DNA of 38,153 bases from a virus, in the UHGV virus genome UHGV-0081093; one strand, written 5' to 3'. Within the stretch, counting starts at the first letter, position 1. Every line of letters begins with the position of its first letter. Positions 1,065 through 37,438 of this stretch are shown in pieces. Made by a program: the position numbers and the translations under genes. The notes below the pieces were generated by a model. It ran no database searches. It was not told the origin of the DNA and saw only the letters and a list, made by a program, of their open reading frames with translations.

Positions 1065-2096
1065 TCAAAAACTTGCTATTGATGTTGGTAGTGTTGCCAG
1101 CGGATTAAACCGTAATGCAGTTTCCAGGTGATCCGGTGCCAGATGTGCGTAACGCATAGTCATTTTTATATCGTGATGCCCGAGAATTTTTTGTAAGGCC
1201 AGGATATTTCCACCCGACATCATGAAGTGCGCCGCAAACGTATGGCGCAGAACGTGTGTCAGTTGACCGCGAGGGAGCACGATAGACGTTTTTTCCATCA
1301 CGGATAAAAATTGAAAATAGCAGTCTGTAAAGAAATTGAACCCATCAAGCGCCATGATCTCTTCGTAAAGCTCTTTACTGATAGGGATGCTTCTGTTTTT
1401 CTTCCCCTTCGTTCTTACAAAGGTAATTCGGTATTTGGTCACCTGTGAGCGGGTAAGATTTACGGCTTCACGCCAACGTGCGCCTGTGCTTAAGCATATC
1501 TTAACTACCAGTGCCAGAATTGGGTCCTGACGTTTGCAATCAGCCAGCAATTCAACAATCTGCTCATGGGTAAGCCATGCCATCTCTTTTTCTGCGATGG
1601 TGAATTTTCGCATGTTCTCCAGTGGGTTTGGATACGACCATTCGCCCAGGCGGGATAGTTCGCTAAAAACACTACTTAGATAGCTTTGCTCCAGGTTAAT
1701 GGTGACCGGGCTGGCTCCTTTCTTCCATTTCTCGCTGAAGTAGATCTCACCTGTCAGGCGTTTATCTCGATAGTGGGCAAACATTTTAGAGGTGAGATTG
1801 GTTGCAAGAGGATTGCCTAGAGCGTCAACCATCAGCAGCAATTTGTCATAGACATGCTGCCCAGCAGTCAGAGATTTACCATGTAATTTGAACCATAGCT
1901 CAACCACGTCTTTCAGGGTTCGACGATCCACTGATTCGCCCAGCCAGGGCTTTGATTCGGTTTCTTCCATCGTGTGACGCTCAAAAGCCAGAGCTTCGCC
2001 TTTGGTGGCGAATTGTTTACGCACACGACGCCCACTTCTTCCGGCGGGGTAACATTCGCAAAGCCATTTCCCTGTGGTGAGTTTTCGTACTGCCAT
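1065..2096 (-). CDS. int: Phage tyrosine integrase (186/P2-type)
   Basis: C-terminal catalytic region LSTGARWREA ... HVLRHTFAAHFMMSGGNILALQKILGHHDIKMTMRYAHL carries the R...HxxR...Y tyrosine-recombinase signature. Start taken at MAVRKLTTGKW (ATG 2096..2094), which matches remembered P2/186 Int N-termini; the track ORF extends further upstream to 2252. Confidence 0.88.
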   Translation of the reverse strand: MAVRKLTTGKWLCECYPAGRSGRRVRKQFATKGEALAFERHTMEETESKPWLGESVDRRTLKDVVELWFKLHGKSLTAGQHVYDKLLLMVDALGNPLATNLTSKMFAHYRDKRLTGEIYFSEKWKKGASPVTINLEQSYLSSVFSELSRLGEWSYPNPLENMRKFTIAEKEMAWLTHEQIVELLADCKRQDPILALVVKICLSTGARWREAVNLTRSQVTKYRITFVRTKGKKNRSIPISKELYEEIMALDGFNFFTDCYFQFLSVMEKTSIVLPRGQLTHVLRHTFAAHFMMSGGNILALQKILGHHDIKMTMRYAHLAPDHLETALRFNPLATLPTSIASF

Positions 2097-2284
2097 AAAA
2101 AATGCCCTCCAGTAGAGAGCATTTTTACTGTATGTATAACCAGTGTCAATGTATGAAATCCTACGACCATACATCTCACTGAAGCCATAATGAAGTTGGC
2201 TATTCTTTTTGCTATGTGAGCATGTAACTTTTGCGGTTAACCTGCGGCTCATTTTTATTTTAGACGCAGATATAAAAGCAAAAG

Positions 2285-2491: not shown

Positions 2492-3148
2492 CTATTTAAC
2501 ATACTTGACTGTTAAACTTATAATTTTACCAATTATTTCAATGTCTTCTATCTTGCATTCGAAGGCTCTGTTTCCACCCTCGACGAAGATTCTTCCACCG
2601 GGTAAACGAGTAATGTCACGGATCGTTATTTCGCCATCAATACTTATTACCCATTTACCATCACGTATATCATCAAATTCTTTATCACAAATAAATTCAG
2701 AATTGTTATCTGTGATGACAAAAGGTTTTTTAAACGTAGAGGGTAGAAATCCCTTATCAAAAATATAAAAACCGTCTTTCTGCAATGCTCCATCAGACAA
2801 TAAATATTTTTCTACTTCTATAGTATTTGTATTTGCTGATGCTTGCTTTGAACCATGCCCTGTTGTTAGCCAATTAAGCGAGGTGCCCGTTTCAAGGGCG
2901 CACTGGATTACCCAATCTGCTGGAAAAATATCACGCATATAGCGCGTTGCCATGGTGCTCTTAGAAACACCTAAATGATCACAGAGAGCCTGACGGGTAC
3001 CGAACCCATATGCTTCAACTAAACGTTCTATGGCTTTCTTACCGCCGCTATTGAAATCCACAAGTCCTCCAAAGAAATCCGAAATTCGTTGACAGATTCC
3101 AAAAGCGATCTTAAAGTTGAACCAGAAGTGTTCTTTTGGAGCCTTCAC
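2492..3148 (-). CDS. Immunity repressor, 186 CI-like (HTH N-domain plus C-terminal domain)
   Basis: Divergent from the apl/cII-like genes and adjacent to int. Internal HTH-like segment LGVSKSTMATRYMRD...ALETGTSLNWLTTG. No obvious S24 autocleavage motif. True start may be the internal GTG near 3085 (GGAGGA RBS just upstream), which would give about 197 aa. Confidence 0.7.
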   Translation of the reverse strand: MKAPKEHFWFNFKIAFGICQRISDFFGGLVDFNSGGKKAIERLVEAYGFGTRQALCDHLGVSKSTMATRYMRDIFPADWVIQCALETGTSLNWLTTGHGSKQASANTNTIEVEKYLLSDGALQKDGFYIFDKGFLPSTFKKPFVITDNNSEFICDKEFDDIRDGKWVISIDGEITIRDITRLPGGRIFVEGGNRAFECKIEDIEIIGKIISLTVKYVK

Positions 3149-3410: not shown

Positions 3411-3474
3411 TAGACGTCTATTTTCACAATAAGACGCTGAGTTCGATTTTGCGATAAGTTCGGAGTTGAAAACC

Positions 3475-3984
3475 ATGTTTGATTACCAAGTTTCCAAACA
3501 TCCACATTTTGATGAAGCCTGTCGTGCATTCGCACTGCGCCACAACCTGGTGCAACTGGCAGAACGTGCAGGCATGAATGTGCAGATTCTGCGGAACAAG
3601 CTGAACCCAGCTCAACCTCATTTATTAACCGCACCAGAAATCTGGCTGCTTACCGATCTGACTGAAGATTCAACGCTGGTAGACGGTTTTCTGGCACAGA
3701 TTCATTGTCTGCCATGTGTACCGATTAATGAGGTGGCAAAAGAGAAACTGCCACATTACGTCATGAGTGCAACCGCAGAGATCGGGCGTGTTGCTGCAGG
3801 TGCGGTATCTGGCGATGTAAAAACCAGTGCAGGTCGTCGTGATGCCATCAGCAGCATTAACTCTGTAACACGACTGATGGCACTGGCTGCTGTTTCATTG
3901 CAGGCCCGTTTACAGGCTAACCCTGCGATGGCGAGTGCAGTTGATACCGTAACTGGCCTCGGTGCTTCATTCGGTTTGCTGTGA
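3475..3984 (+). CDS. CII-like lysogeny establishment protein (186 CII-like)
   Basis: Position directly after the apl-like gene; about 169 aa from ATG 3475 (GGAG RBS at 3463..3466); sequence reminiscent of 186 CII as I remember it. Confidence 0.6.
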
Positions 3985-5048: not shown

Positions 5049-5275
5049 TGGCTGATGCAATGGATCTCGTACAGCAGCGCGTTGAAGAAGAACGCCAGCG
5101 CCATATCCGTGCTGCCCGTGCCAAAACACCGGGCGTGTCTCGCGTGCTTTGCATTGAATGTGAAGCACCAATTCCGCCAGCACGCCGCCGTGCCATTCCT
5201 GGAGTGCAGCTTTGCATTACCTGTCAGGAAATCGCAGAGCTGAAAGGCAAACATTACAACGGAGGTGCTGTATGA
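5048..5275 (+). CDS. TraR/DksA-family C4 zinc-finger protein
   Basis: CIECEAPIP...LCITCQ four-cysteine motif in a 75-aa protein, typical of phage TraR-like proteins. Confidence 0.7.
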   Translation: MADAMDLVQQRVEEERQRHIRAARAKTPGVSRVLCIECEAPIPPARRRAIPGVQLCITCQEIAELKGKHYNGGAV

Positions 5276-6129
5276 GCACCATCCTGAAATGGGCGGGAAA
5301 TAAAACCGCAATTATGTCCGAACTGAAAAAATACCTACCTGCTGGCCCGCGACTGGTTGAACCTTTCGCGGGTTCCTGTGCTGTGATGATGGAGACGGAT
5401 TACCCCAGCTATCTGGTTGCGGATATTAATCCTGATTTAATCAACCTCTATAAAAAGATTGCCGCTGATTGCGAGGCGTTTATATCGCGGACCAGAACTT
5501 TGTTTGAGGAAGCAAACAGTGACCTAGCTTATTACAACATAAGGCAGGAGTTTAATTACTCAACTGAAATTACTGATTTCATGAAAGCGATATATTTCCT
5601 GTATCTCAATCGTCATGGTTACCGTGGGTTATGTCGCTATAACAAGAGCGGGCATTTCAACATTCCCTACGGTAATTATAAAAATCCGTATTTCCCTGAA
5701 AAAGAAATTCGCGCATTTGCAGAAAAAGCCCAGCGGGCAACGTTTATCTGCGCCAGCTTTGATGAAACGCTGGCGATGTTGAAGGCGGGGGATGTGGTGT
5801 ATTGCGATCCGCCGTATGACGGCACGTTTTCCGGTTATCACACTGACGGCTTCACTGAAGATGACCAGTATCACCTGGCATCCGTTCTTGAATATCGATC
5901 ATCAGAAGGTCATCCGGTCATTGTTTCTAACAGTGACACATCCCTGATCCGTTCGCTGTATCGCAATTTCACTCACCACTACATCAAGGCAAAACGCAGC
6001 ATCGGCGTGTCAGCTGGCGAGAGTAAATCTGCAACAGAAATCATTGCTGTTTCCGGGTCGCGCTGCTGGATGGGATTTGATCCTTCGCGTGGCGTGGATA
6101 GTTCTGCTGTGTACGAGGTGCGTGTATGA
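5272..6129 (+). CDS. dam: DNA adenine methyltransferase (Dam-like, N6-A MTase)
   Basis: N-terminal SAM-binding region (KWAGNK...EPFAGSCAV) and catalytic DPPY motif. ATG 5272 with GGAGGTG RBS; the track ORF from 5212 is an upstream extension. Confidence 0.85.
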
Positions 6130-8540
6130 GTCATGACGATATGAGCAACTCTAGCGGCTTTAACGAGGCTGCCGCAGCATTTTCATGGAACGGCCCGAAA
6201 AAGGCCATTAACCCTTATCTGGATCCGGCGGAAGTTGCGCCGGAGTCTGCACTTTCAAACCTGATCACTCTGTACGCTGCCGATAACGAGCAGGAACAAC
6301 TGCGCCGCGAGGCACTGAGTGAGCAGGTCTGGGAGCGTTATTTCTTTAATGAATCCCGTGATCCTGTCCAGCGCGAAATGGAGCAGGATAAGCTCATTAG
6401 CCGGGCAAAGCTGGCGCATGAGCAGCAGCGTTTTAACCCGGACATGGTCATTCTGGCAGATGTCAGCGCCCAGCCTTCTCATATCAGCAAGCCGCTGATG
6501 CAACGTATCGAATACTTCAGCAGCCTGGGCAGGCCAAAGGCTTATTCCCGCTATTTGCGTGAGACGATTAAGCCATGTCTGGAGCGACTGGATTGTGTAC
6601 GTGACAGTCAGCTATCTGTTTCTTTCCGTTTTATGGCAAGCCATCAAGGGCTGGAGGGGCTGCTGATCCTGCCTGAAATGAGCCAGGATCAGGTGAAACG
6701 CCTGTCCACCCTGGTAGCAGCGCATATGAGCATGTGTCTTGAGGCCGCTTGTGGTGATTTGTACGCCACCGATGACGTTAAGCCAGAAGAAATCCGCAAG
6801 ACATGGGAAAAGGTGGCTGCGGAAACCCTGCGTCTGGATGTTATCCCGCCTGCGTTTGAGAAACTTCGTCGGAAAAGAAACCGCCGCAAACCTGTGCCCT
6901 ATGAACTCATACCGGGTTCGCTGGCACGTATGCTTTGCGCCGACTGGTGGTATCGAAAATTGTGGAAGATGCGTTGCGAATGGCGGGAAGAGCAGTTGCG
7001 TGCTGTCTGTCTGGTCAGCAAAAAAGCATCTCCCTATGTCAGCTATGAAGCAGTGACGCATAAACGTGAGCAGCGCCGCAAGTCGCTGGAGTTTTTCCGT
7101 TCTCATGAACTGGTGAACGAAGACGGAGACACGCTGGATATGGAAGATGTGGTAAACGCCAGCAGCAGCAACCCGGCACATCGCCGCAATGAGATGATGG
7201 CCTGCGTTAAAGGTCTGGAGCTTATCGCGGAAATGCGCGGTGACTGCGCCGTTTTCTACACCATCACCTGTCCGTCACGTTTCCATTCCACGCTCAATAA
7301 CGGCAGACCAAACCCGACCTGGACAAATGCGACGGTAAGACAAAGCAGTGATTATCTGGTCGGCATGTTTGCTGCATTTCGTAAGGCGATGCACAAAGCC
7401 GGATTGCGGTGGTATGGCGTGCGGGTGGCTGAGCCGCATCATGACGGTACTGTGCACTGGCATCTCATGTGCTTCATGCGTAAAAAAGACCGCCGCGCCA
7501 TCACTGCATTACTGCGTAAGTTTGCCATCCGTGAAGACCGCGAGGAACTGGGCAATAACACGGGGCCACGCTTTAAGTCTGAGCTGATTAACCCGCGCAA
7601 AGGAACGCCGACAAGCTACATCGCGAAATACATCAGTAAGAACATTGACGGGCGTGGTCTGGCTGGCGAGATCAGCAAGGAAACGGGTAAATCCCTGCGT
7701 GATAACGCTGAATACGTTAATGCCTGGGCGTCTCTGCATCGTGTTCAGCAATTCCGCTTCTTTGGCATTCCGGGGCGTCAGGCTTACCGTGAACTGCGAT
7801 TGCTGGCTGGTCAGGCGGCAAGGCAGCAGGGTGACAAAAAAGCAGGTGCGCCGGTACTGGATGATCCGCGTCTTGATGCCATTCTGGCTGCTGCTGATGC
7901 TGGCTGTTTTGCCACCTACATTATGAAGCAGGGCGGCGTGTTGGTTCCCCGCAAATATCACTTGATCAGAACCGCTTATGAAATCAACGAAGAGCCGACC
8001 GCCTATGGTGATCACGGTATTCGTATTTATGGCATCTGGTCACCCATTGCAGAGGGCAAGATCTGCACTCATGCAGTGAAGTGGAAAATGGTTCGTAAGG
8101 CCGTTGACGTTCAGGAGGCGGCAGCCGACCAGGGCGCTTGCGCCCCTTGGACTCGTGGCAATAACTGTCCCCTTGCTGAAAATTTGTACCAACAAGGGAA
8201 AGACAAATCAGCTGATGGGGATACCAGAACGGATATCACCCGCATGGATGACAAGGAATTGCACGATTACCTGCACAGTATGAACAAAAAAGAGCGTCGG
8301 GAACTGGCTGCAAGGTTACGCCTGGTGAAACCGAAACGGCGTAGAGACTACAAACAGCGAATTACAGATCATCAGCGACAGCAGCTCGTCTATGAACTGA
8401 AGTCCAGAGGATTTGATGGCAGCGAGAAAGAGGTCGATTTACTCCTTCGCGGCGGCAGCATTCCGTCAGGAGCAGGCCTGCGTATTTTCTATCGGAACCA
8501 GCGTTTGCAGGAAGATGATAAGTGGCGGAACCTGTATTAA
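6126..8540 (+). CDS. A: Replication initiation endonuclease (P2 gpA / 186 RepA family, rolling-circle)
   Basis: 804 aa, in the position of P2 gene A; contains a VHWHLMCF HxH-type motif typical of rolling-circle initiators. Confidence 0.85.
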
Positions 8541-8693: not shown

Positions 8694-8882
8694 ATGCAGG
8701 ACTATTTTTTGGAGTCTTTGAAGCTCCAGCGCATTGATTTTTTTCTTAAGCTTGTAGCGGCTAGTGAGTGTAGTGATGAAGAGAAGGGGCTGGCCCTGCA
8801 GTGGGTTTCTGAACTGACAGATGAACTCATGGCAAAAATCAGAACCCACGAATACAACCGCTCAATGGATGTCATCAGCTGA
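8694..8882 (+). CDS. Hypothetical small protein, first gene of putative SOS-controlled operon
   Basis: ATG 8694 preceded by an AGGAGG RBS and lying downstream of the LexA box. The longer track ORF from 8592 would contain the LexA box. Confidence 0.45.
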   Translation: MQDYFLESLKLQRIDFFLKLVAASECSDEEKGLALQWVSELTDELMAKIRTHEYNRSMDVIS

Positions 8883-8892
8883 GGTGACTTTT

Positions 8893-9126
8893 ATGCGCAT
8901 TGAAATAATGATCGATAAAGAGCAGAAGATTAGCCAGTCTACCCTGGACGCCCTTGAATCCGAGCTTTACCGCAATCTGCGCCCCCTGTATCCCAAAACG
9001 GTAATTCGCATTCGCAAAGGTAGCTCTAACGGTGTGGAACTGACCGGACTGCAACTGGACGAAGAAAGGAAGCAAGTGATGAAAATTATGCAGAAGGTGT
9101 GGGAAGACGACAGCTGGCTGCATTAA
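8893..9126 (+). CDS. DinI-like protein (possible Tum-type antirepressor)
   Basis: MRIEIMIDKEQ...LYRNLRPLYPKTVIRIRKGSSNGVELTGLQLDEERKQVMKIMQKVWEDDSWL resembles DinI (MRIEVTIAK..., ...ETWESADDW). GAGGTG RBS before ATG 8893. Confidence 0.65.
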   Translation: MRIEIMIDKEQKISQSTLDALESELYRNLRPLYPKTVIRIRKGSSNGVELTGLQLDEERKQVMKIMQKVWEDDSWLH

Positions 9127-9156
9127 GAAACGTTGCCCCCAAGAGGATTCATTCTG

Positions 9157-9327
9157 ATGGGGGACTATTTTGGGCAACGAGTGAAACGAGGCGTTAGTTG
9201 GACGGCCATTTTGATAAGTGATCGTCCGCTTTTTGTTCTGAGTTCAAGCGATGGATTTAACACACTGGTTGAAGCAGAAGTATCTAAGTTCAATTTATAT
9301 TATTTGAAGGGCACTGGTCTGATGTAG
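9157..9327 (+). CDS. Hypothetical small protein
   Basis: Short ORF with an AAGAGG RBS; weak support. Confidence 0.25.
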   Translation: MGDYFGQRVKRGVSWTAILISDRPLFVLSSSDGFNTLVEAEVSKFNLYYLKGTGLM

Positions 9328-9413
9328 TACGATTTTTGCCGGAGATGGCATGTTCTATATTGATCTCATCCATATAATGATTGGTATTATTAGCTTAGTT
9401 TAAAGAGGATTGA

Positions 9414-10991
9414 ATGGATATCAACTATGTTGTTTCAAAAATGGAGTTCGTAGATGATCTTATTAATGCAGGTTCATTTGATTCTGCCTATAAAAATGTA
9501 AAGGATATTCTTAACGGTATCGATGAGATAAATACAATCAAAGAAAATAGAATAATTATATTATCTAATTTGGCCGGAAATCTTATTGATATCGGAAGTT
9601 TTAGTAATGTAAAAAATATAGCGGAGGAAGGCTTAAATATCTTTATAAACAATAAAAATGAATTTCTGACTATAATGAAAGAATCCTTATATTACTATAA
9701 CTTGGCAAATGGAATGAGCGCAGTTCTTGATTTTAATCCTAATGACAATGCAGATATTGATAGTTTCATTAAGCTGAATGATGTAAAAAATAATTACTGG
9801 AAAGCGTTTAAACTTTCACAAGAAGATGGATGGGTGCCCCCTGATTTAATAGTTAATCTAGCTAATGTATTAAAAAAACAATATCGTATATCTGAATCAA
9901 TGGATTATTATGAACAAGCAATATCTATTGATAACTCAATTCCTCAGGCATGGGTAAACAGATCTGAGGCATTAGAATTGCTTAATGAATTATCTACAAC
10001 ATATACATATAAAATGATTAAAGAAGTTATTCGAGGTTATGAGTGTGCAATAAAGTCAGGGAAATGTTTTCCTTCATGGAAGGTTGCTCTTCAAAGAAAA
10101 ATAAAGTACAACGAAAGTATATTGAGTGAATCATGTGTATATGGCATAGAGGATATAAGTACAGATGAAAGGCTCACGCAGGAGGAGTATGATACTTTAT
10201 CAAACTACCAGAGGTTTTGTATAGATAATAATCTAATGTTGTCTGATCATTCGCTATATTGCAATTGTTATGCGTCATCTAAAGATAATATAACTATTGC
10301 TACCACCGAGGAAGGTGTGTTTGGTGATTTTATAGTGCCAATGGAAATGGTGTTAAATAGACTTAAAGCTGAGTATTCCTTAGCACGAAAAATGTTTTTT
10401 GAATATAAGGTTGATAGTGAGTTTTTTGATGAGGATTCGGAGGTATGTTATTCTGAATTGTATAATGGAGAAATATTGTATGAAAATGTTGAGAAGTTAA
10501 GGGTTGCATTTAGAGCTTGCTTTGGTATCTTGGATAAAATAGCAGTTGCTCTGTGTCAATTATTTGATTTAAAACCAGATAGAGGACATATATACTTTCA
10601 TAACTTCTGGCGGATTAGTGATGAAAAAAGAAAGCTTAAAATAAACAAAATAAATAATAAAGGATTGCTGGGTTTGTTTAGTATTGCTATGGATTTGAAT
10701 GATAAAAATGGTGAGCTTGCTTTTTTTAAAGAATGGAGGAATGATTTAGAACATAAACTGTTAGTTATTCACGAGAAAGACATGTTAGTTGATTTATATA
10801 ATTCTTATGGGTTTTTTGATGAGGTGAGGTTTGTTGAGAAAGAAAAGTTTGAGAAACAGCTCTTACAACTCATGAAAATTGTGAGATCAGCCGTTATTCT
10901 TTTTGTGTTTACCATACGTATAGAGGGGAAAAAAAGTATTCCTAAAGATATGTTGACCATTAAAAATACCATCGAGAGAAAAGTATTGTAG
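9414..10991 (+). CDS. AT-rich cargo protein with TPR-like repeats and a C-terminal HEPN-like RNDLEH motif; candidate abortive-infection / defence effector
   Basis: 525-aa ORF in a block of very low GC with N/K/I-rich codon usage, unlike the rest of the prophage; AGAGGA RBS. TPR-like segments (e.g. YYEQAISIDNSIPQAWVNRSEALELL) and RNDLEH (Rx4H) near residue 445. Located between gene A and the cos-like site. Confidence 0.7.
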   Translation: MDINYVVSKMEFVDDLINAGSFDSAYKNVKDILNGIDEINTIKENRIIILSNLAGNLIDIGSFSNVKNIAEEGLNIFINNKNEFLTIMKESLYYYNLANGMSAVLDFNPNDNADIDSFIKLNDVKNNYWKAFKLSQEDGWVPPDLIVNLANVLKKQYRISESMDYYEQAISIDNSIPQAWVNRSEALELLNELSTTYTYKMIKEVIRGYECAIKSGKCFPSWKVALQRKIKYNESILSESCVYGIEDISTDERLTQEEYDTLSNYQRFCIDNNLMLSDHSLYCNCYASSKDNITIATTEEGVFGDFIVPMEMVLNRLKAEYSLARKMFFEYKVDSEFFDEDSEVCYSELYNGEILYENVEKLRVAFRACFGILDKIAVALCQLFDLKPDRGHIYFHNFWRISDEKRKLKINKINNKGLLGLFSIAMDLNDKNGELAFFKEWRNDLEHKLLVIHEKDMLVDLYNSYGFFDEVRFVEKEKFEKQLLQLMKIVRSAVILFVFTIRIEGKKSIPKDMLTIKNTIERKVL

Positions 10992-11313
10992 TATATTTTC
11001 ATCGAGCGATGAAACGGTCTGTTTTTCTTTATAGTTTTGTCATAAAAAAGAGATTTCCTGCTTAAAATTTGGCTATTACAGAGCAACTATGTATGTTCCT
11101 CGCTCACAGTAGAGCTTCATCTTTGTAAGTCTGTATGTTTCGTTTTTCAAGTGGTCATTCAGATACGGACTTTCACTTCTCTTAGACAGTGCATGACTAT
11201 GCTGCATGAAATCGCATGATCGTTTAAGGATCGTTTTTGCTAAGGCTCGCCAGAACTAGCGGGCTTTTACGTAGAACATGCAGGTGCATGAAAACCACTA
11301 CATAAAGCGGGCA

Positions 11314-11332
11314 GGCGTGGCGGGGATACGAG
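11314..11332. other. Putative cos site core (GGCGTGGCGGGGATACGAG)
   Basis: First 13 nt match the cohesive-end sequence of P2/186 as I remember it (GGCG[A/T]GGCGGGGAAAGCA[C/T]). Lies in a 474-bp non-coding gap upstream of the Q-P packaging genes. Confidence 0.4.
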
Positions 11333-11465
11333 CGCGCGCTGTGAGCTTAAAAAGCTAAATTCTAGTTTGCTATGATTCTCAAAAATTGCGTGTTAAGCAA
11401 AATAGCTACGGTTATACTGTGTACAGAAAGAACTATCAAAATTAACAATAAAGGGAGGGGATGAG

Positions 11466-12485
11466 ATGACTGCAACTACACATCAGAAGCCTCTTAATGC
11501 TTTCTTTCGCCGAGTAGGGGCGCTTGATAGGCGTTTAGCCGAAGGGCTATCAAAGTTACTTCCTGATTGGTGGGATGATTCGCTTAATCATTCAGCGAGC
11601 ATTAGCCAGCAGGTAATTTTAGGTTTGGCAAAGTTTGCGAATCTGGATTTGGCGACGGTCGTCAATCCTACTGCTGAATTGAGATTCAATGAGTCAGTAA
11701 GAAAGTATAAACACGCGGCAAATAAATCGGTCGAAGAGTTGCAGGCTGCTACGGCTGTGGTTGATGGTATGGCAAAAATCGCAGCTTCAGTTGCTAAAAG
11801 ACCATATATGGGGCTTTCATCTGCTCGTGATATACGTGAGATAATCCTTTCTCAAGGAAAGCCTTGGGTAGATTTCCTGTCACTCTTAGAATTTGCTTGG
11901 TCTGCGGGTATCCCTGTTTTGTATATGACGGATATTCCTGCCAGGAAAAAGATGGATGCAGTTGCTATAAAGGTTTCTGATCGCCCAGTTATTGCTCTTA
12001 CAAAAAAACATAAACATGCAAGTGGTATTTTGTTTAGTTTGGCGCACGAGTTAGGGCATATCGCTTGCGGCCATCTTGAGGATAACTCATTGTTAATTGA
12101 TGAAAAAATCAATGAAGATGATGTCGAAAATCCTCAAGAAATAGAAGCCAATGCTTACGCAATAGAACTCCTTAATGGCAGACCAGATGCTGCATTCCAT
12201 AGCAATGGTTGGATTTCTGCTGAAGTGCTGGCTTCGGAAGCTTTGCGTATAGGGCGTCACAATAAGGTTGATCCTGGCCACGTAGCTTTAAATTACGCCA
12301 AAACAATGGGGCGTACGCATACAGGGAATTTTTTCCCTGTATGCGGAAGTGCATTAAACATACTTTATCCTCGTTTGGATTGGATGGAGCATGCTGCCGC
12401 AATTTTTCTTGAATATGTTGATGAAGAGAAGGTATCGGAAGACAAGTTTGAAATGTTATGCAGAATGAACAACATTGAGGTGTAA
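11466..12485 (+). CDS. Metallopeptidase-domain protein (HEXXH; ImmA/IrrE / M78-like), gene 1 of cargo operon
   Basis: 339 aa with AGGGAGGGG RBS. Contains LAHELGHIACGHLED, i.e. an HEXXH zinc-peptidase motif in a context typical of ImmA/IrrE-type domains. Confidence 0.7.
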   Translation: MTATTHQKPLNAFFRRVGALDRRLAEGLSKLLPDWWDDSLNHSASISQQVILGLAKFANLDLATVVNPTAELRFNESVRKYKHAANKSVEELQAATAVVDGMAKIAASVAKRPYMGLSSARDIREIILSQGKPWVDFLSLLEFAWSAGIPVLYMTDIPARKKMDAVAIKVSDRPVIALTKKHKHASGILFSLAHELGHIACGHLEDNSLLIDEKINEDDVENPQEIEANAYAIELLNGRPDAAFHSNGWISAEVLASEALRIGRHNKVDPGHVALNYAKTMGRTHTGNFFPVCGSALNILYPRLDWMEHAAAIFLEYVDEEKVSEDKFEMLCRMNNIEV

Positions 12486-12490
12486 CGCCA

Positions 12491-13129
12491 GTGGCTGTAT
12501 TACTTGATAATGATGTAGTACTGAAATTGGCTCAACTTGATCTGCTTGCTGATGGTTGCAAATTACTTACAAGTAAGTACGGCCAACTTTATGTTTTAGA
12601 TACGCTTTTTTATCAGTTACGAGGTAAGTCAGCTCTTCGTCGTTATGGTGCTGAGGCATTGGAACGCGTACAGCAATGCCTGTCAGAGAGGGCATTTTTG
12701 CCGTTTGAAGAGTTAATCACGGATCAACGTTTGATTGAATTACAGAACAATTTCGAGAATCTTGATGAAGGCGAGATGCGTTTGCTTCAAGGTTTAATAA
12801 ATAATCATGATCTGCTTCTATCAGGCGATAAACGCTTTTTGAAGGCAATTGCTGAGACTGGATTTATAGAGGAAGCATCTCTCAATAATCGTTTTGTATG
12901 TTTAGAACAAGTGGTTTGTTTTCTTATCAATGAGTTATCTCTTGATCATGTCAACGCAAAAGCCTCGATTGCTTTTCAGGGTGAATGTAGAGTTGATAGT
13001 GCTTTAAGAACATGTATTGGTTACGGGCGTACGCATGAGCACGTTATGGAAGGGATATTTCACCAACTTCGTGGGCTACCTGAAACTCTTCTATCAATAG
13101 AGGTGCATTGGAGTTTGACTCAACCTTAA
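12491..13129 (+). CDS. Hypothetical protein, gene 2 of cargo operon (possible PIN-like nuclease domain)
   Basis: GTG start 5 nt after the gene-1 stop. N-terminus VAVLLDNDVVLKLAQLDLL resembles the first strand/Asp of PIN domains, with further acidic positions (NLDEGE, SGDKRF) at spacings compatible with a PIN fold. Inference only. Confidence 0.6.
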   Translation: MAVLLDNDVVLKLAQLDLLADGCKLLTSKYGQLYVLDTLFYQLRGKSALRRYGAEALERVQQCLSERAFLPFEELITDQRLIELQNNFENLDEGEMRLLQGLINNHDLLLSGDKRFLKAIAETGFIEEASLNNRFVCLEQVVCFLINELSLDHVNAKASIAFQGECRVDSALRTCIGYGRTHEHVMEGIFHQLRGLPETLLSIEVHWSLTQP

Positions 13130-13184
13130 CTATATGCAAAGAACAAGAGTTTAGGGCGCATGCTAATGCGCCCTTTTGCTATAT

Positions 13185-14222
13185 TTAATCTGCACCTAAG
13201 GTATAAATCTCAAAGCTGATCACTTCCTCTCCCAGCCAGTCATTTAGCTCTTCTAGGCGCTTCTGCAGCGGCATCAGCTCGTTGCGAACAAAGACTCGGC
13301 TGGCTTTCTCCACATCCCCAAACCCCCCGACATTATTCGGCATAATCCCCATCATCTGCGGCGGCACTCGGTGTGCTGCCATCATGTCGTCCCGGCTCAC
13401 GTTCTTGATATTCAGAAACTCATCCTTCGCCGCAACTTCTGACAAAGGGATGATCTGAAGGCCGTCCTTTTTGCCGTTAGGCGAGTACATAAACAGGTTG
13501 CGGAAGTTGCCTGGACCTTTGGCGCTTTTCATCGCGTTGCGGAGGTTGTTCACATCCTCCTGATTCTGCGCGGCGTCGGTCATGTACATGATGAAGCCTG
13601 CATGGCTGCCGTTGATGTAATACTTACGGCGGAACAGCGTGGCGGACTCGTTGAGTAGGGCGGATGGAATGGCAGAAAGATAGCCGGGCAGGCCGTAGAT
13701 CTCCTGGTTGATGTCCGGTTCCATCAGATGAAAAATGCTGCCTTTCGTGAACTGATACGGCTGGGTTGTCATACCGTATTGCACAAACCAGTAGGTATCC
13801 AGGTCTAATCCGCGTCGGGTGTATTTTGCCAGAGTAGGCTCAAGGGCTATAACTTCACCGAATCGGTTCGTGCGTTTCTCTAGGTAGGCGTTACCAAATA
13901 CCAGATAGTCTTGCACAAAACGCGAAAAAGCCTGCTGGCTGAGCAGCGGATGAGGGATATAGGTACTGGTCAGAATGTTGCACTTTACTGCAATCGGGGA
14001 ACTGTGATGCACGGCGGCGCGGAAGGTGCGCGCCAGTCCGTCAAAGCTGACGGGCGGCTCATACCAACGGTCCATCTGTACGCATTCCACATAGTCCAGT
14101 AATTCTCGGCGGTCCAGAACAGGAACGGGATCGCCGAAGCTGAATGCTTCGGCTGAAGTCTGGCTTTTATGCTGGATGTGATTCATCGCCGCAGCGCGGT
14201 TTTTCTTACTCTTTCCCATCAA
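13185..14222 (-). CDS. Q: Portal protein (P2 gpQ-like)
   Basis: 345 aa, first gene after the cos-like site, overlapping the terminase gene by ATGA, as in P2. Confidence 0.8.
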   Translation of the reverse strand: MMGKSKKNRAAAMNHIQHKSQTSAEAFSFGDPVPVLDRRELLDYVECVQMDRWYEPPVSFDGLARTFRAAVHHSSPIAVKCNILTSTYIPHPLLSQQAFSRFVQDYLVFGNAYLEKRTNRFGEVIALEPTLAKYTRRGLDLDTYWFVQYGMTTQPYQFTKGSIFHLMEPDINQEIYGLPGYLSAIPSALLNESATLFRRKYYINGSHAGFIMYMTDAAQNQEDVNNLRNAMKSAKGPGNFRNLFMYSPNGKKDGLQIIPLSEVAAKDEFLNIKNVSRDDMMAAHRVPPQMMGIMPNNVGGFGDVEKASRVFVRNELMPLQKRLEELNDWLGEEVISFEIYTLGAD

Positions 14223-15985
14223 AAAATCTCCACAATATTGCTTGTATTGGCGGACTCGCCCTGCAGCGGTTCATTAAACAGTGCGTGCATCGTTGCCCAG
14301 GCCAGATCGGCGTGGCTGGCTTCTTCGCTGCGGCTGGCTTCATAGGTCGGGCGGTTGCCACTGGCGGTGGTGGCGCGACGGATTGCCATGAATGACTGCG
14401 CAATGTCGGTGTGCCCGGCGTCAAACTCCAGACGGCGGTGGCTGATAATGTCGTATGCCTTGAGTACCAGGGCGTTTTTAACGTTGGGGTTGTAGACAAA
14501 CTCCCGGACGGCAGGAAAAAACGCTTTCACGTTCTCGTAAACCCCGTGACCAACGCCGGTTGAGTCGATGCCGATATAGGTCACGTTGTACTGTTCGGTC
14601 AGTTTTTTGATGGCGTCAGCCTGGGCGCGAAAGTCCATCCCGCGCCACTGGTGACGCTCAAGAATGCGGAACTTGCCGCCCGGCACGGCTGGCGGTGCCA
14701 CCACCACGCATCCGGCACTGTCGCCGTTCTGCGTACCTTTCGCCGGGTCATAACCGATCCACACTTCGCGCCAGCCAAATGGGCGCAGTGCCAGTGCATG
14801 AAAGTCGGTCCAGACTTCCCAGCTGTCCACCATGCACGCCTGCAGCTCGCTGAGCGGGAACACGGACGCGAGATCGTCCACGAACTCGCACATCAGCAGG
14901 TTCTGGTATTCGTCCGGGCTGTACTCCATGCGCAACTGGTCAAGGTCGAACAGGTTGCAGCCGCCGCGCACCGCATCTTCCACGGTGACTATCTGGCGGT
15001 ATTGCCCGTCTGCGCACAGCAGGCCGGGGGCCAGATTGCTGTGGGACAGGTCGATGTCCACCTTATCGGCTTTGTTGCGCCCACGGTTGAACAGCGCACC
15101 GGACCAGAACGGATAAGCACTGTGTGTCAGACTGGATGGCGTGGAAAAATAGGTCTGTCGCCATTTTTTGTGAATAGCCATACCGGAAGCCACTTTGCGC
15201 AGCTCCTGGAATTTCGGTATCCAGAAATATTCATCCAGATACAGGTTGCCGTGGTAACTCTGGGCCGTGCGGGCATTGGTGCCGAGGAAGTAAAGTGTGG
15301 CCCCGTTGGGAAGCACCATCGGATCGCCTTTCAGCTCCACTTCCACTTCTTTGGCGAAGTCGATGATGTACTGCTTAAAGACGTGGGCCTGTGCCTTGCT
15401 GGCGGAAAGGAAAATCTGGTTACGTCCGGTTAGCAGGGCGTCAATCAGGGCTTCACGGGCAAAGTAAAAGGTCGCGCCGATCTGGCGTGACTTCAGCAGG
15501 TTGCGGATGCGGTTGGTTTTTCCGGCTTCCCACCAGTGGCGCTGGTAGTTGAACATGGAGGAATGGAAGATTTCTTCCAGCTTCTCAATCTGTTCATCGG
15601 TGAAAACATTCTTTTCCGGCTGACGGCGCGGGCCTTTGTTGCGGTTGGCGACGTTTGGGTTTAAGTCGGCTTCGTTGCCGCCATTGTTAAACTTGCCGAT
15701 CCGCGCGTGGCGTTCCGACTGGCGCGCCAGCAGGTCAATCTCTTTGAAATCTTTCCCTTCTTTGTGCTCCTTCATAATGAGCTGGCAGTAGCGTGCGGCG
15801 GTGGTGAGCTGCATCTGATCCAGCGGCCCATAGTCACCCCACTTGTCGCGTTTTTTCCAGCTGTGAACGGTTGCAACTTTCTCGCCCAGCATTTCAGCAA
15901 TGCGGGCTACGCGGTATCCCTGAAAGTACAGCAGCATGGCCTGCCGACGGGGATCGAGATCTGCGGGTGTCAGTGTGGTGTTCAT
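14219..15985 (-). CDS. P: Terminase large (ATPase) subunit (P2 gpP-like)
   Basis: 588 aa, the size and position of P2 gpP, divergent from the O-N-M operon. Confidence 0.85.
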   Translation of the reverse strand: MNTTLTPADLDPRRQAMLLYFQGYRVARIAEMLGEKVATVHSWKKRDKWGDYGPLDQMQLTTAARYCQLIMKEHKEGKDFKEIDLLARQSERHARIGKFNNGGNEADLNPNVANRNKGPRRQPEKNVFTDEQIEKLEEIFHSSMFNYQRHWWEAGKTNRIRNLLKSRQIGATFYFAREALIDALLTGRNQIFLSASKAQAHVFKQYIIDFAKEVEVELKGDPMVLPNGATLYFLGTNARTAQSYHGNLYLDEYFWIPKFQELRKVASGMAIHKKWRQTYFSTPSSLTHSAYPFWSGALFNRGRNKADKVDIDLSHSNLAPGLLCADGQYRQIVTVEDAVRGGCNLFDLDQLRMEYSPDEYQNLLMCEFVDDLASVFPLSELQACMVDSWEVWTDFHALALRPFGWREVWIGYDPAKGTQNGDSAGCVVVAPPAVPGGKFRILERHQWRGMDFRAQADAIKKLTEQYNVTYIGIDSTGVGHGVYENVKAFFPAVREFVYNPNVKNALVLKAYDIISHRRLEFDAGHTDIAQSFMAIRRATTASGNRPTYEASRSEEASHADLAWATMHALFNEPLQGESANTSNIVEIF

Positions 15986-25826: not shown

Positions 25827-26270
25827 ATGAATCAATATATTTATTCCCCTTCGGAAAATGCATTTTATGCTGTTAATTTAAAAAATACTTATGAAGTAAA
25901 TGGAACATGGCCCGCTGACGCATTAGATATTCCTGATGACATTTCTGTAAAATATATGGCGGAACCGCCACAAGGGAAAATCCGAGTTGCAGGGGAAAAT
26001 GGTTTTCCCACATGGGCTGAAATACCTCCACCATCACATGAGGAACTTATTGAACAGGCCGAATCAGAGAGGCAATTATTGATTAACCATGCCAACGAAT
26101 ACATGAACAGTAGGCAATGGTCTGGTAAAGCAGCTATTGGTCGCCTGAAGGGGGACGAGCTGGCGCAATATAATTTGTGGCTGGATTATCTGGACGCACT
26201 GGAACTGGTCGATACTTCCGGGGCGCCAGATATTGAATGGCCTACGCCTCCGGCAGTTCAGGCCAGATGA
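25827..26270 (+). CDS. G: Tail fibre assembly protein (gpG/Tfa-like), current orientation
   Basis: 147 aa; C-terminal ...DYLDALELVDTSGAPDIEWPTPP Tfa signature. Confidence 0.75.
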   Translation: MNQYIYSPSENAFYAVNLKNTYEVNGTWPADALDIPDDISVKYMAEPPQGKIRVAGENGFPTWAEIPPPSHEELIEQAESERQLLINHANEYMNSRQWSGKAAIGRLKGDELAQYNLWLDYLDALELVDTSGAPDIEWPTPPAVQAR

Positions 26271-26844
26271 CATCCGGCGCTGTGCTGGTATTTGTTGCCG
26301 TCACCGCGTCAATGTAATCCAGCACAGCGTTAAGCCGGGTTGTTTCTGCCTGCATCAACTTCCGTCCGGCCTGTAATTTCAGCTGAATCAGACTGATGGA
26401 AGCCATTGCAGCATCAATCAGTGACTGACGCTGTGCTTCTGCCGCGTCTACTGCGGCGCTATGCTGTGCCTCAGTATCGGTCACCCATTTCTCACCATCC
26501 CATTTATCGTATGGCGTTAATGGGGCGATAGTGGTTGTATTTTCGGGGTAATCACCCGGTGCTGTGATTTCTTTGGCATCTCCCGTTTCGGTGTTATAGA
26601 CGATTTCACCGCGATGGTCTGGCACATATTCCCATGAATTAAAATCTACAGAACGGCAAATTGTATAACCAGCCTTATATGTACCAGGAGCGTCTAAACA
26701 GGAATATGCTGGAATACCGACACCCACTGCAAGATATTCAGTTGATGCAGAAATATATTCCCGAGTTTCACCATCGTAGTTATAAACGGTAATATTCCCC
26801 GCCTTCGTGGCAATAAACTCGCTATTTAATACTGCGTTATCCAT
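26242..26844 (-). CDS. Alternative tail fibre assembly protein (G'), inverted
   Basis: 200 aa on the opposite strand; C-terminal ...DYIDAVTATNTSTAPDVIWPELP Tfa signature. Confidence 0.7.
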   Translation of the reverse strand: MDNAVLNSEFIATKAGNITVYNYDGETREYISASTEYLAVGVGIPAYSCLDAPGTYKAGYTICRSVDFNSWEYVPDHRGEIVYNTETGDAKEITAPGDYPENTTTIAPLTPYDKWDGEKWVTDTEAQHSAAVDAAEAQRQSLIDAAMASISLIQLKLQAGRKLMQAETTRLNAVLDYIDAVTATNTSTAPDVIWPELPEA

Positions 26845-27365
26845 TATGCAGCCCTCACGATAAAGTTAAATGCAATATTTCGTGGACGGGTCTCACTCCC
26901 ACCAGTATTACCGATACTCCCTCGTGAATGAAGTGTCGGTGATGGGATCAGACTCCCTCCTGTATTTGTGGCATCAAGTCCCCGTCCTTGTGTGTATGTT
27001 TTTTTGAAAATCGTAGCCAGTTCCCATTCATCTTTTGTGTCGTAACCATCATTGGCAACAACAATATGGCGGTGTTTTTCCAGCATCCCAGCCTGAAGGC
27101 TCAATAAAGCACGTCCAGCATCAATACCACGCCCGTCATCCCAGCCACGAATAAACTCACCACGTAAATCTGGCAATTTATTTGTCGGGTAAGCCTTTGC
27201 CAGTTCCGGGTATTCTTCAGCAGAAAAAGCTGCTCCGTTGCATTTCAGCCAGCCTGTTGGCGGAGTGGCTGAAGGCCACGGAACAGGGACACCAACAGGT
27301 AATGCAGAGCCTTCTCCCAAACCAACGTTTAAGAAAATGCAGCGATTACGACTAACTGGCATCAT
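26844..27365 (-). CDS. Alternative tail fibre variable C-terminal segment (H'), inverted and currently unfused
   Basis: Opposite-strand ORF whose 5' end contains the ...NVGLGEG... crossover junction homologous to H ...YLGLGEA...; inversion would fuse it to the constant part of H. Confidence 0.6.
   Translation of the reverse strand: MMPVSRNRCIFLNVGLGEGSALPVGVPVPWPSATPPTGWLKCNGAAFSAEEYPELAKAYPTNKLPDLRGEFIRGWDDGRGIDAGRALLSLQAGMLEKHRHIVVANDGYDTKDEWELATIFKKTYTQGRGLDATNTGGSLIPSPTLHSRGSIGNTGGSETRPRNIAFNFIVRAA
27312..27337. other. Invertase crossover site (right), 26 bp TTCTCCCAAACCAACGTTTAAGAAAA
   Basis: Inverted copy of the core of the 25464..25489 site, just upstream of the invertase gene. Confidence 0.55.
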
Positions 27366-27392
27366 CCCCGGTTTTTATTCAGGGGATTGATC

Positions 27393-27959
27393 ATGCTTAT
27401 TGGCTATGTACGCGTGTCAACAAATGACCAGAACACCGATTTGCAACGTAATGCACTGAACTGCGCGGGATGTGAGCGGATTTTTGAGGACAAAATCAGT
27501 GGCACTAAGTCCGACAGACCGGGGCTTAAAAAACTGCTCAGGACACTATCGGCAGGTGACACACTGGTTGTCTGGAAGCTGGACAGGTTGGGGCGCAGTA
27601 TGCGGCATCTTGTTACGCTGATAGAAGAGTTGCGCCAGCGCGGCGTGAATTTCCGAAGCCTGACTGACAGTATTGATACCAGTACCCCAATGGGCCGTTT
27701 CTTTTTTCATGTCATGGGTGCCCTGGCTGAAATGGAACGCGAACTGATAGTTGAACGTACCAGGGCAGGGCTGGCTGCAGCTCGTGCTAAAGGCAGAGTA
27801 GGTGGACGCCGTCCTAAGTTGACTACCGAACAGTGGGCACAGATTGGGCGTTTACTCGAGGCCGGAGAATCAAGACAGCGTATTGCACTGATTTTTGATG
27901 TAGGCGTTTCTACCATTTATAGAAAATTTCCGGCAAATAAGAGCAATGAATCTCCCTGA
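27393..27959 (+). CDS. Serine site-specific DNA invertase (Gin/Pin/Hin family)
   Basis: MLIGYVRVSTNDQNTDLQRNAL...VVWKLDRLGRSM...GRFFFHVMGALAEMERELI... is near-identical in its motifs to Mu Gin as I recall it; catalytic Ser in YVRVST. ATG 27393 with AGGGGA RBS. Confidence 0.9.
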   Translation: MLIGYVRVSTNDQNTDLQRNALNCAGCERIFEDKISGTKSDRPGLKKLLRTLSAGDTLVVWKLDRLGRSMRHLVTLIEELRQRGVNFRSLTDSIDTSTPMGRFFFHVMGALAEMERELIVERTRAGLAAARAKGRVGGRRPKLTTEQWAQIGRLLEAGESRQRIALIFDVGVSTIYRKFPANKSNESP

Positions 27960-35483: not shown

Positions 35484-37169
35484 TTATCCTAATCCTGGCC
35501 ATACCATGACGATGATTGTCCCTGCCAGCGTCAGCAGGACGTTGGCGATTGCATAGGTGCCCGCATAGCCCAGCGCCGGGATGTTACTGCGAGCTGTATC
35601 ACTGATGATCTCCATTGCCGGCGCGCAGGTGCGTGCGCCCATCATTGCGCCGAACAACAGTGCGCGGTTCATTCGCAATACATAAGCACCGAACAAGAAA
35701 CAGATAACCACTGGCACAAGACTGACAATCAATCCGGCAATCAACATCTGACCGCCAATCGCGCCTAGGCCGTTATTAATACCGCTACCGGCGCTCAGAC
35801 CAACGCCTGCCATAAACACCATTAAGCCGAACTCTTTCACCATGCTTAATGCACCCTGCGGAATGTAACCGAAGGTCGGGTGGTTAGCGCGCATAAATCC
35901 CAGCATAATTCCGGCGAATAACAACCCGGCAGCGTTCCCCATGCCGAAACTGAATGTGCTGAACTGGAAGGTGATCATCCCGATCATCAGCCCAATAACA
36001 AAGAAGGCGCAGAATGCCAGCAAGTCAGTGACCTGGCTGTGAATCGAGATAAAGCCGATGCGATCGGCGATGGTTTTTACGCGACGGGCATCGCCGCTGA
36101 CTTGTAAAACGTCACCTTTGTTAAGCACGACGTTGTCATCTATCGGCATCTCAATCTGGCTACGAATGACGCGGTTAAGGAAGCAACCGTGATCGGTCAA
36201 CTTCAGTTGTGCGAGACGTTTGCCCACGGCGTTATGGTTTTTAACGACCACTTCTTCAGTGACGATACGCATGTCGAGAAGGTCACGATCGAAAACTTCT
36301 TTGCCGTTACGGAAGCTGGGATCGAGTCGTGCGTGGGCGTCGGGATAGCCTACCAACGCTATTTCATCGCCCATTTGTAGCACAGCATCACCGTCTGGAT
36401 TCGCCAGAATCCCGTTACGTCGAATACGTTCAATGTAGCAGCCAGTTTGTCGATAAATACCCAGTTCACGCAGATTTTTGCCGTCGGTCCAGGCCACCAG
36501 CTCCGGGCCGACGCGGTAGGCGCGGATCACCGGTAAATAAACCTTACGGTTGGCATCAGTGTCCAGGCCACGTTCGCGGGCGATTTGCTGGGCGCTGGTC
36601 TGTAAGTCCTGATGCTGCAATTTCGGCAAGTAACGCGCACCAACAATCAAACTCACCAGACCGATTAAATAGGTTAAGGCATACCCGAGGCTCAGATTAT
36701 CCAGTGCCAGTGAGAGCTGCCTGCTTTCCATGCCGGAATGACGCAGTGTATCGCCAGCACCGACCAGAACCGGTGTCGACGTCATAGAGCCAGCTAACAT
36801 ACCGGCCGTCAGGCCAATATCCCAGCCAAACAGCTTACCTAACCCTAAGGCGATCACCAGCGCACTGCCAACCATCACCAGTGCTAACATTAGGTAATTT
36901 TTCCCATCGCGAAAAAAAATGGAAAAAAAGTTCGGTCCGGCTTCGACCCCGACGCAGAAAATAAACAGCATAAAGCCAAGATTAAGCGCGTCGGTGTTAA
37001 TGCTGAAATGTTGTTGGCCTAATAACAGCGATACGACTAAAACGCCAATGGAATTACCCAGTTGGATCGAACCAAGTCGTAATTTCCCGAGACATAGCCC
37101 AAGCGCGAGGACCACAAATAATAACAGAATGTAATTCCCATTTAACAATTCGGCGACGTTTATATTCAC
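35484..37169 (-). CDS. ybjL: Putative transport protein YbjL (two membrane domains flanking paired cytoplasmic TrkA-C-like domains)
   Basis: 561-aa polytopic membrane protein; matches E. coli YbjL by size, sequence and its position next to ybjM/grxA. Confidence 0.85.
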
Positions 37170-37438
37170 GGAGGCTAACTTCTTGTTTACTAGTAAGCTG
37201 TTGAAAGAAATGGTAATTTACGATAATGTTTTTTACCAGAATTCAGGGCGCAGATTCATTCAGCGCACCTAAAAGATAGTAAAGTAACAATATATTTTAC
37301 TAGTGTAATCACATTAGGTATCAACGGCTATATGAATTGCGTTGGCCTATATTAGCATGGAATGCGAAGCGGCTTTATCTTACTGAACGCCACACTGGCG
37401 AAAAATGTGTTCGATAGACGCAGTGTCAGGAGGAACGA

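Follow-up and report, generated by a model that had tools for sequence, protein, structure and literature searches.

A probable two-bay form of the gpA-gpQ accessory hotspot around a predicted cos site in a 186-like prophage

The virus genome UHGV-0081093 (38,153 nucleotides, hereafter the window) comprises a complete P2-family prophage of the 186/Fels-2-like kind, integrated beside host genes. We analysed the interval between its early genes and its packaging genes, in which a sequence resembling the cohesive-end site (cos) of P2-type phages is flanked by three cargo genes, one on its left and two on its right. This interval is very probably the accessory (defence) hotspot of P2/186 phages in a two-bay form, with the two bays being swapped independently of each other. 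The proposal of an exchangeable island at this position, made in a sequence-only reading of the window, is correct and is known in its essentials. The interval is the already described gpA-gpQ hotspot of the P2 family, and the prior descriptions of the hotspot and of both its sub-sites had been missed.

Results

Cargo on the two sides of the predicted cos assorts almost at random

About 4 kb of non-core DNA separates the end of the DinI-like gene (9126) from the stop codon of the portal gene Q (13185). This is what the sequence-only reading had described, and its coordinates and its account of the three open reading frames (ORFs) hold, with the exception of what it said about G+C content. The left cargo is indeed AT-rich (32.4% G+C). 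The right cargo had been called GC-normal; its measured G+C content is 41.0%, as compared to 52.6-57% in the flanking core genes and 50.6% in the window. Both cargoes are AT-rich relative to the phage, to unequal degrees, with 30.7% G+C in the HEPN coding sequence, 42.6% in the ImmA-type peptidase gene and 39.6% in the PIN-like gene (Table 1).

The interval was compared among 79 loci, namely the window, five E. coli loci and IMG/VR contigs with a portal at least 93% identical, each with one cos motif between A and Q. The non-core DNA falls into two segments, 9137-11188 and 11340-13184, on either side of a 151-bp block that is common to all 79 loci. Column conservation is at least 0.85 at most positions of this block and drops to about 0.3-0.5 outside, with sharp edges, and loci anchored on cos cannot be aligned beyond 11189-11339. 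The block is asymmetric, since it extends 125 bp to the left of the predicted cohesive end and only about 6 bp past it. The 474-bp gap between the cargo ORFs (10992-11465) does separate them and does contain the cos-like sequence, as had been noted. It is not inert, being made up of the 3' flank of the left cassette, then the cos block, and finally the leader of the right cassette with its putative promoter. Homology with a relative whose left bay is empty (L005, ET565) ends at 9136 and restarts at 11188. The 92 bp just left of the cos block are shared with E. coli 65COLEC (L003), whose left bay has a different gene, and are absent from ET565; they may be the scar of an earlier occupant or of recombination, or a shared boundary sequence.

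Among 5,426 complete E. coli genomes, 1,281 contained a relative of the flanks. The HEPN cassette was found in 11 genomes at 99.4% identity or more, every time in the left bay. In all 11, homology runs from gene A to 11338-11341 and restarts at lower identity within the 3' end of Q, at 13194-13288. At least eight different partners occupy the right bay of these genomes: three hypothetical genes, a 120-residue gene product, a 671-residue AAA ATPase, the reverse transcriptase of retron Ec67 (L090, E. coli ECCTRSRTH03), IS2 together with a DUF262 protein, a P-loop/KAP-type NTPase (two genomes), two different AIPR proteins, and a 353-residue PIN protein (two genomes). The ImmA/PIN cassette was found in four genomes at 99.8% identity or more; in three of them the left bay is empty, two of these having an IS100 in the cos block, and in the fourth it is occupied by a leftward gene for 111 residues. 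None of the 5,426 genomes contained both cassettes. Neither cassette was present in 50,697 phage records, where the matches covered the flanks and the cos block only (coverage at most 20%).

A larger set of 133 unique loci having DinI, cos and Q, located with tblastn anchors, was obtained by enlarging the 79 with an exact-cos scan and with further E. coli loci. The distance from DinI to cos ranges from 147 to 4511 bp and that from cos to the Q stop from 157 to 3547 bp. Cargo is present in both bays in 91 loci, in the right one alone in 31, in the left one alone in 9 and in neither in 2, so that two-sided occupancy is the commonest state in this lineage. A similar spread of the cos-to-Q distance was observed, in a scan of one genome per species, in Enterobacter, Citrobacter, Klebsiella, Pantoea, Erwinia, Tatumella, Kluyvera and others. 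In both P2 (187 bp from cos to the Q stop) and 186 (196 bp) the right bay carries no cargo, which is probably why an occupied one looks unusual against these references.

Clustering of the cargo DNA of the 133 loci gave 46 left-bay types and 82 right-bay types in 120 combinations, as compared to 124.9 ± 2.2 when the bays were re-paired by shuffling. This near-random assortment, the occurrence of each cassette without the other and the many partners bear out the earlier suggestion of two independent, swappable slots. Alignment against related prophages, which had been named as the check, gave different genes in each slot, and relatives sharing the same three genes in the same arrangement, the sign of a conserved core instead of variable cargo, were not seen. 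The interval is flanked by A and Q, contains the predicted cos, and varies in gene content among close relatives, as in the described hotspot.

Linkage breaks within the cos core

Linkage was compared in pairs of loci that share the left-bay type and differ in the right bay, and in pairs with the reverse relation. The polymorphic columns between -128 and -11 with respect to cos all follow the left-bay type, with a match of 0.83-1.00 (0.94-1.00 in the block) against a background of 0.30-0.76, and none of them is associated with the right-bay type. The columns from +25 to +29 track the right-bay type (0.86-0.97) and not the left. Outwards, linkage of the cassettes reaches about 0.5-1 kb into DinI/A or into Q. 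Right-bay cargo is linked to Q over hundreds of base pairs, while it is unlinked to polymorphisms that lie 36-55 bp away across cos. This pattern on either side of cos confines the exchange point to the invariant positions -10 to +24, a stretch that includes the 19-nt end. At the other border of the right bay, the last 3 to 35 or so codons of Q (13185-13290) vary among relatives in step with the right-bay cargo, and the portal C-terminus therefore belongs to the exchanged segment.

Two routes may lead to this pattern. Crossovers may be confined to the sole perfectly identical stretch of about 35 bp (route a). Alternatively, crossovers may take place anywhere in the shared core of co-replicating phages and be followed by cos-to-cos packaging (route b), which would work because no two markers are farther apart than the bays on the linear virion map. 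According to the accessible portions of Moura de Sousa (2026; PMC13586616), the recombination processes that act at these hotspots have yet to be worked out.

Assortment might also arise by site-specific or illegitimate insertion at the edges of the cos block, and not by homologous exchange or by reassortment of cos ends. The sharp cargo boundaries at cos-126 and cos+26 would fit such a process, and so would the movement of cargo between unrelated elements that lack flanking homology, which is discussed in the accessible portions of the same paper (PMC13586616). However, identical cassettes co-inherit about 0.5-1 kb of outer core sequence together with the whole left cos arm, which is a signature of homologous exchange, and the borders of the cassettes in the window show neither an integrase or transposase gene nor a repeat. 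We consider insertion at the block edges unlikely.

The cargo genes

The left-bay protein carries the motif R442-NDLE-H447, which fits the Rx4-6H catalytic motif of HEPN proteins. Its N-terminus gives weak Pfam TPR matches, and at least one clear TPR repeat near residues 145-190 is indicated by matches to PDB sequences. It matched no PADLOC system, and NCBIfam and PHROGs gave no functional name beyond the domains. The strong match to HEPN_LA2681, the Rx4H motif and the location in a defence hotspot are shared with the HEPN ribonucleases of abortive-infection and toxin systems (Anantharaman, 2013; PMC3710099), from which the window protein differs by its N-terminal TPR fusion. It is a candidate abortive-infection ribonuclease whose TPR part may sense a phage cue. 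In the literature we found no experimental characterisation of the LA2681 family or of its TPR fusion; the family is covered in the 2013 survey of HEPN proteins (PMC3710099). Identity with the "HEPN-TPR" system of P4 (Rousset, 2022; PMC9122126) was considered and rejected, since BLASTP finds no similarity between the two; the P4 system was inactive in the phage panel of that study, according to its accessible portions. Upstream of the HEPN gene, a TTG-initiated ORF for 64 residues (9133-9327) was discarded as a gene. It has no family match, RefSeq has no annotation there in 14 homologous loci, and the segment is treated as the upstream region of the HEPN gene.

The first right-bay gene encodes a peptidase with HELGH at residues 194-198 (HEXXH zinc motif) and a full-length match to phrog_18577. 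Its core resembles the peptidase regions of RmrA, PD-Lambda-2_B and CapP in PADLOC (partial matches, query residues 133-236), the best match to an RmrA model having an E-value of 7.5e-11. In the N-terminal 145 residues no helix-turn-helix was detected and there is no Pfam match at E <= 10, and phmmer of the peptidase against PDB sequences gave nothing meaningful. The PIN-like gene starts 5 bp past the peptidase stop codon, and the two genes therefore form one operon. Its 212-residue product has no match in Pfam (to E <= 10), NCBIfam or PADLOC, none to a curated PIN sequence model and no functional name from PHROGs; one UniRef name labels a homologue DUF4935. The AlphaFold2 model is confident (predicted local distance difference test score 91.5), and residues D6, D8, E95, D113, E139 and D169 are invariant in 26 homologues. 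On the basis of the modelled structure and of these acidic residues, the protein is predicted to have a PIN nuclease fold, and it is probably the nuclease partner or toxin of the peptidase.

The pair is kept as a unit in Vibrio, in Proteus and in one metagenomic contig. In Vibrio aestuarianus (L099/L100, 1-5639) it directly follows JetC/JetD (Wadjet), a Beta_protein gene and a P4 cII-like gene. In Proteus mirabilis (L101-L103, 3981-5660) it occupies a moron site in the tail module of a siphovirus-type prophage, with the tail assembly chaperone genes on one side and the tape measure gene on the other, and the genes adjoining the pair vary there also.

An M78 zinc peptidase gene beside the gene of a putative toxic effector is the arrangement of RosmerTA, PD-Lambda-2 and CapP of CBASS. 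With respect to RosmerTA, only the catalytic region of about 100 residues of the window peptidase matches and no N-terminal helix-turn-helix was detected, and the 212-residue partner matches neither RmrT nor any other PADLOC model. The pair would represent a toxin/antitoxin-like defence pair, with the peptidase as the controlling or sensing component and the PIN protein as the effector. Another explanation is that it is a regulatory module of the prophage, composed of an ImmA-type anti-repressor protease that triggers induction by cleaving a repressor, as in ICEBs1 and some Bacillus phages, and of an accessory partner. Membership of the Pfam M78/IrrE family, a weak NCBIfam match to a repressor/antitoxin family and the label of phrog_2439 as a transcriptional regulator speak for this. 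Nevertheless, the pair is dispensable, being present in 4 of the 5,426 complete genomes while more than 1,200 contain related prophages; the prophage already has a 186-type CI, CII and a Tum/DinI-like SOS module; no cognate helix-turn-helix repressor gene is adjacent; the partner has a predicted nuclease fold; and the pair travels as a unit into unrelated contexts, including the Wadjet-containing island. A regulatory role is accordingly quite improbable.

At the start of the right bay, the promoter-like site is a consensus match only, in a region that has no excess of such sites. At its end, the G+C-rich hairpin between the convergent PIN-like gene and Q is predicted to terminate the right-bay operon and also, in the manner of tQ/tW, the portal operon; P2 tQ and 186 tW are annotated at the matching position. 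There is no conserved sequence on the Q side, and every right-bay cassette supplies its own hairpin near the Q stop.

The conserved block as a predicted packaging site

The cos-like sequence GGCGTGGCGGGGATACGAG (11314-11332) is the sole match in the window to GGCGWGGCGGGGA when up to one mismatch is allowed (0.11 expected by chance). A P2-type cos has a 19-nt 5' cohesive end starting with GGCG(A/T)GGCGGGG, and conserved flanks; in the window, 11314-11332 is the predicted 19-nt cohesive end. Its first 13 nt are those of the 186 cohesive end, whereas positions 14-19 differ (TACGAG vs. AAGCAT in 186). The earlier placement of a cos-like sequence between the two cargoes is supported by this uniqueness and by flanks that align with the cos regions of P2 and 186, whose cos is annotated at the homologous place. 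The record of Salmonella phage SEN8 terminates at the base homologous to 11313, and nearly all related loci have the motif once between A and Q.

The left arm of the block (11189-11313) contains five GCATG/CATGC motifs, four direct and one inverted, in a 151-bp block where 0.27 would be expected at the window rate of 1.8 per kb. All five copies are kept in 106 of the 133 loci. TGCAT repeats and GCGCGC just past the end sequence are also present in P2 and 186. The GCATG/CATGC repeats are probably terminase recognition elements. Within the block, a terminator-like hairpin followed by a T-run (11244-11268) would insulate cos and the right bay from rightward transcription coming from the left bay.

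Two irregular loci were observed. In E. coli E1433 (NZ_CM180511.1, L098 3440-5425), and also in E1620, an IS100 lies within the hairpin of the cos block. In E1433 the insertion, flanked by a duplication of 5 bp (CCAGA), stands about 60 bp to the left of the cohesive end and splits three GCATG repeats from the predicted cleavage site. The scaffold gene of the E1433 prophage is truncated and runs directly into tail genes, and for this reason the prophage is probably defective. The contig L254 (IMGVR_UViG_3300011853_000021) has two exact 25-nt cos cores, at 3441-3465 (-) and 6704-6728 (+), about 3.2 kb apart, which could reflect misassembly, tandem or adjacent elements, or a rearrangement of cos.

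If the GGCGTGGCGGGGA sequence were a relic or a look-alike, with the functional cos elsewhere, the cargo would occupy a single bay. In favour of this, the candidate end is a prediction from sequence and differs from the 186 end at 6 of 19 positions. Yet it is the only sequence of its kind in the window; it is conserved together with 125 bp on one side in 79 and then in 133 relatives, amid surroundings that cannot be aligned; where the right bay is empty, the distance to the Q stop is 157-270 bp, like that of P2 and 186; the GCATG repeats and the right flank align with the cos of both phages; and the SEN8 genome record is linearised exactly there. We regard a relic as very improbable. That the three cargo genes are one compound insertion inherited as a unit, with the cos-like sequence inside by chance, is hardly credible: they are co-oriented and all AT-rich relative to the phage core, and the same domain arrangement is listed for at least one other E. 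coli genome (Rousset, 2022, accessible portions of Table S5A; PMC9122126), but each cassette is found without the other at 99.4% identity or more and with many different partners, the breakpoints coincide with the edges of a block conserved in all relatives, and the cassettes are 9 G+C points apart.

Layout of the prophage

The features of the window are listed in Table 1. The gpA gene is the left core boundary of the hotspot as the literature defines it. The 62-residue ORF that follows is annotated in every related locus and belongs to the core, not to the cargo. The DinI-like protein is identical to WP_001217575, and its gene is the final conserved one of the early region. The region 25827-27959 resembles a tail-fibre switching region and coincides with a dip in G+C content to 40%. 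The host genes at the right end of the window (35484-37816) indicate that the prophage ends near 35 kb.

Table 1. Positions of the genes and predicted elements in the 38,153-nucleotide window
Feature	Position	Strand	Basis or remark
Integrase	1065-2252	-	
186-type CI	2492-3148	-	
CII	3466-3984		
Dam methylase	5212-6129		
gpA replication endonuclease	6126-8540	+	ORF; labelled "replication endonuclease" in homologous E. coli loci
Small 62-residue ORF	8694-8882	+	identical to WP_001154434; phrog_698 match, E 1.5e-37
DinI-like (186 Tum-type) gene	8893-9126	+	Pfam DinI, 81.3 bits (cutoff 24.2)
Left cargo bay, DinI to cos	9137-11188	+	comparison with relatives
525-residue TPR + HEPN_LA2681 protein	9414-10991	+	Pfam PF18733, 131.3 bits (cutoff 27), residues 309-504
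92-bp stretch just left of cos block	11096-11187	not assigned	shared with L003
Conserved cos block, cos-125 to cos+25	11189-11339	+	151 bp, 79-locus alignment
Terminator-like hairpin and T-run in cos block	11244-11268	+	fold: consensus of relatives -23.6, window copy -11.9 kcal/mol
Right cargo bay, cos to terminator after portal gene	11340-13184	+	comparison with relatives
Promoter-like site of right-bay operon	11347-11376	+	TTAAAA, 18-nt spacer, TATGAT, TG extension
339-residue M78 (ImmA/IrrE-type) zinc metallopeptidase	11466-12485	+	PF06114, 28.6 bits (cutoff 22)
212-residue predicted PIN-fold protein	12491-13129	+	identical to WP_001747379; predicted structure, conserved acidic residues
G+C-rich hairpin between convergent PIN-like gene and Q	13153-13174	not assigned	9-bp stem and T-run, -18.8 kcal/mol
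Portal Q	13185-14222	-	right core boundary
Terminase P	14219-15985	-	
Tail-fibre assembly gene	25827-26270	+	orientation opposite to the next
Tail-fibre assembly gene	26242-26844	-	orientation opposite to the previous
Tail-collar-domain fragment	26844-27365	-	
Hin/Cin-type serine invertase	27387-27959	+	
Host Asp-Al_Ex/TrkA_C permease	35484-37169	-	
Host YbjM-family protein	37439-37816	+	

Discussion

The accessible portions of Rousset (2022; PMC9122126) describe the gpA-gpQ hotspot with 18,150 occurrences in E. coli and 1,650 arrangements, many of which contain more than one system, adjacent to cos, and those of Moura de Sousa (2026; PMC13586616) and of the iLund4u preprint (10.1101/2024.10.15.618418) treat the locus likewise. 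The interval of the window corresponds to it in locus, flanking genes, proximity to cos, variability among near-identical phages and the frequent presence of more than one system. Table S5A of Rousset (2022; PMC9122126), in its accessible part, includes this domain arrangement, with one accession, WP_001747379, that is the 212-residue protein of the window; at least 21 further HEPN_LA2681 entries have other partners there. As far as their accessible portions go, these papers differ from the present analysis in defining one hotspot by its flanking protein genes: the bays to the left and right of cos are not separated and the break in linkage is not located, so that neither the near-random assortment of the bays nor a break in the cos core is stated. 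Neither cargo of the window is among the systems tested, within the same portions.

The two sub-sites also have precedents. A replacement site between cos and a terminator in 186-related prophages goes back to Dodd and Egan (1996, Virology 219:115), as cited in the accessible portions of PMC5694545, and the paper on Ralstonia phiRSY1, in its accessible part, suggests the position between cosL and Q as a hotspot, citing Dodd and Egan (1996) and Nakayama (1999) on phiCTX. As at that site, the right-bay cargo takes up the DNA from the cohesive end to the terminator of the portal operon: sequences diverge from cos+26 onwards, up to or into the 3' end of Q, by the hairpin at 13153-13174. Retron Ec67 occurs at this very place, in the right bay of E. 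coli ECCTRSRTH03 beside the same HEPN cassette, and another retron lies in the gpA-gpQ interval of E. coli B/BL21. We take the right bay to be the site of retrons Ec67 and Ec86 in 186-related prophages. The occupant in the window differs, being an M78 peptidase and predicted PIN-fold pair and not a retron or a toxin gene.

The left bay has the position of tin/old in P2 and of orf97 in 186, past the early operon and ahead of the left cos arm. These are exclusion genes expressed by the prophage; the old-tin mRNA starts about 150 bp from cos, and orf97 blocks infection by 186. The left-bay gene of the window differs from old and tin in encoding a TPR-HEPN protein and in being rightward, whereas old and tin are leftward. 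The hotspot of the satellite P4 resembles the right bay, with cargo that starts just past the cohesive-end sequence; in the accessible part of Table S2B of Rousset (2022; PMC9122126), GGCGAGGCGGGGAAAGCACTGCGCGCC immediately precedes the cargo of pFR83 (P4 of E. coli ATCC 8739). P4 thus appears to have a counterpart of the right bay only. It is described with cargo at a single site adjoining cos, while the P2/186-type phages considered here use both sides.

Several points weigh against a two-bay hotspot with independent swapping. The number of combinations lies slightly below the random expectation (2.7% of the shuffles were as low or lower), which points to a little residual linkage, and the loci are the closest relatives of the portal and exact matches to cos, related and partly redundant, so that pairs are not independent. 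The pairs with a common right bay and different left bays number only 58, and the linkage statistics are descriptive, although the pattern itself is clear. The sequence data fit routes (a) and (b) alike. PADLOC v2 recognises neither cassette as a known system, and cleavage of cos at 11314, expression of the cargo and defence activity are all predictions from sequence.

Independent swapping of two bays around cos would work as follows. The 151-bp cos block would be the sole part of the interval under packaging constraint, with foreign cassettes abutting it on both sides. Each cassette would have its own promoter region and terminator and could be expressed from the prophage without disturbing the early and late operons. 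When packaging cuts cos, the two bays would be carried to opposite extremities of the virion DNA, the right bay to the left extremity and the left bay to the right one; only in the circular or the prophage form would they adjoin. The bays would then be re-paired by any crossover within the shared core genes (approximately 30 kb), or within the invariant 35-bp cos core, that cos-to-cos packaging follows.

Taken as a textbook hotspot of the P2 old/tin type, a well-mined source of defence genes, the island adds little to the catalogue of discoveries. A larger proposal is that the hotspot consists of two sub-hotspots near linkage equilibrium with the cleavage core of cos as the pivot, and that the TPR-HEPN_LA2681 protein and the M78 and PIN-fold pair are two new anti-phage systems; we put it forward tentatively, as a possibility that is somewhat doubtful when taken as a whole. 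If it is true, recombination anywhere in the genome, or a terminase break at cos, followed by cos-to-cos packaging, would generate new defence pairings at a high rate. Surveys that delimit the hotspot by its flanking protein genes merge two bays that behave as separate loci, and splitting at cos would sharpen guilt-by-association analyses, which would find here one system of one gene and one of two genes instead of a single three-gene system. The TPR-HEPN_LA2681 protein and the M78 and PIN-fold pair are candidates for defence assays, and the break in linkage within the 35-bp cos core suggests a testable route by which these phages may rapidly reshuffle their defence repertoires.

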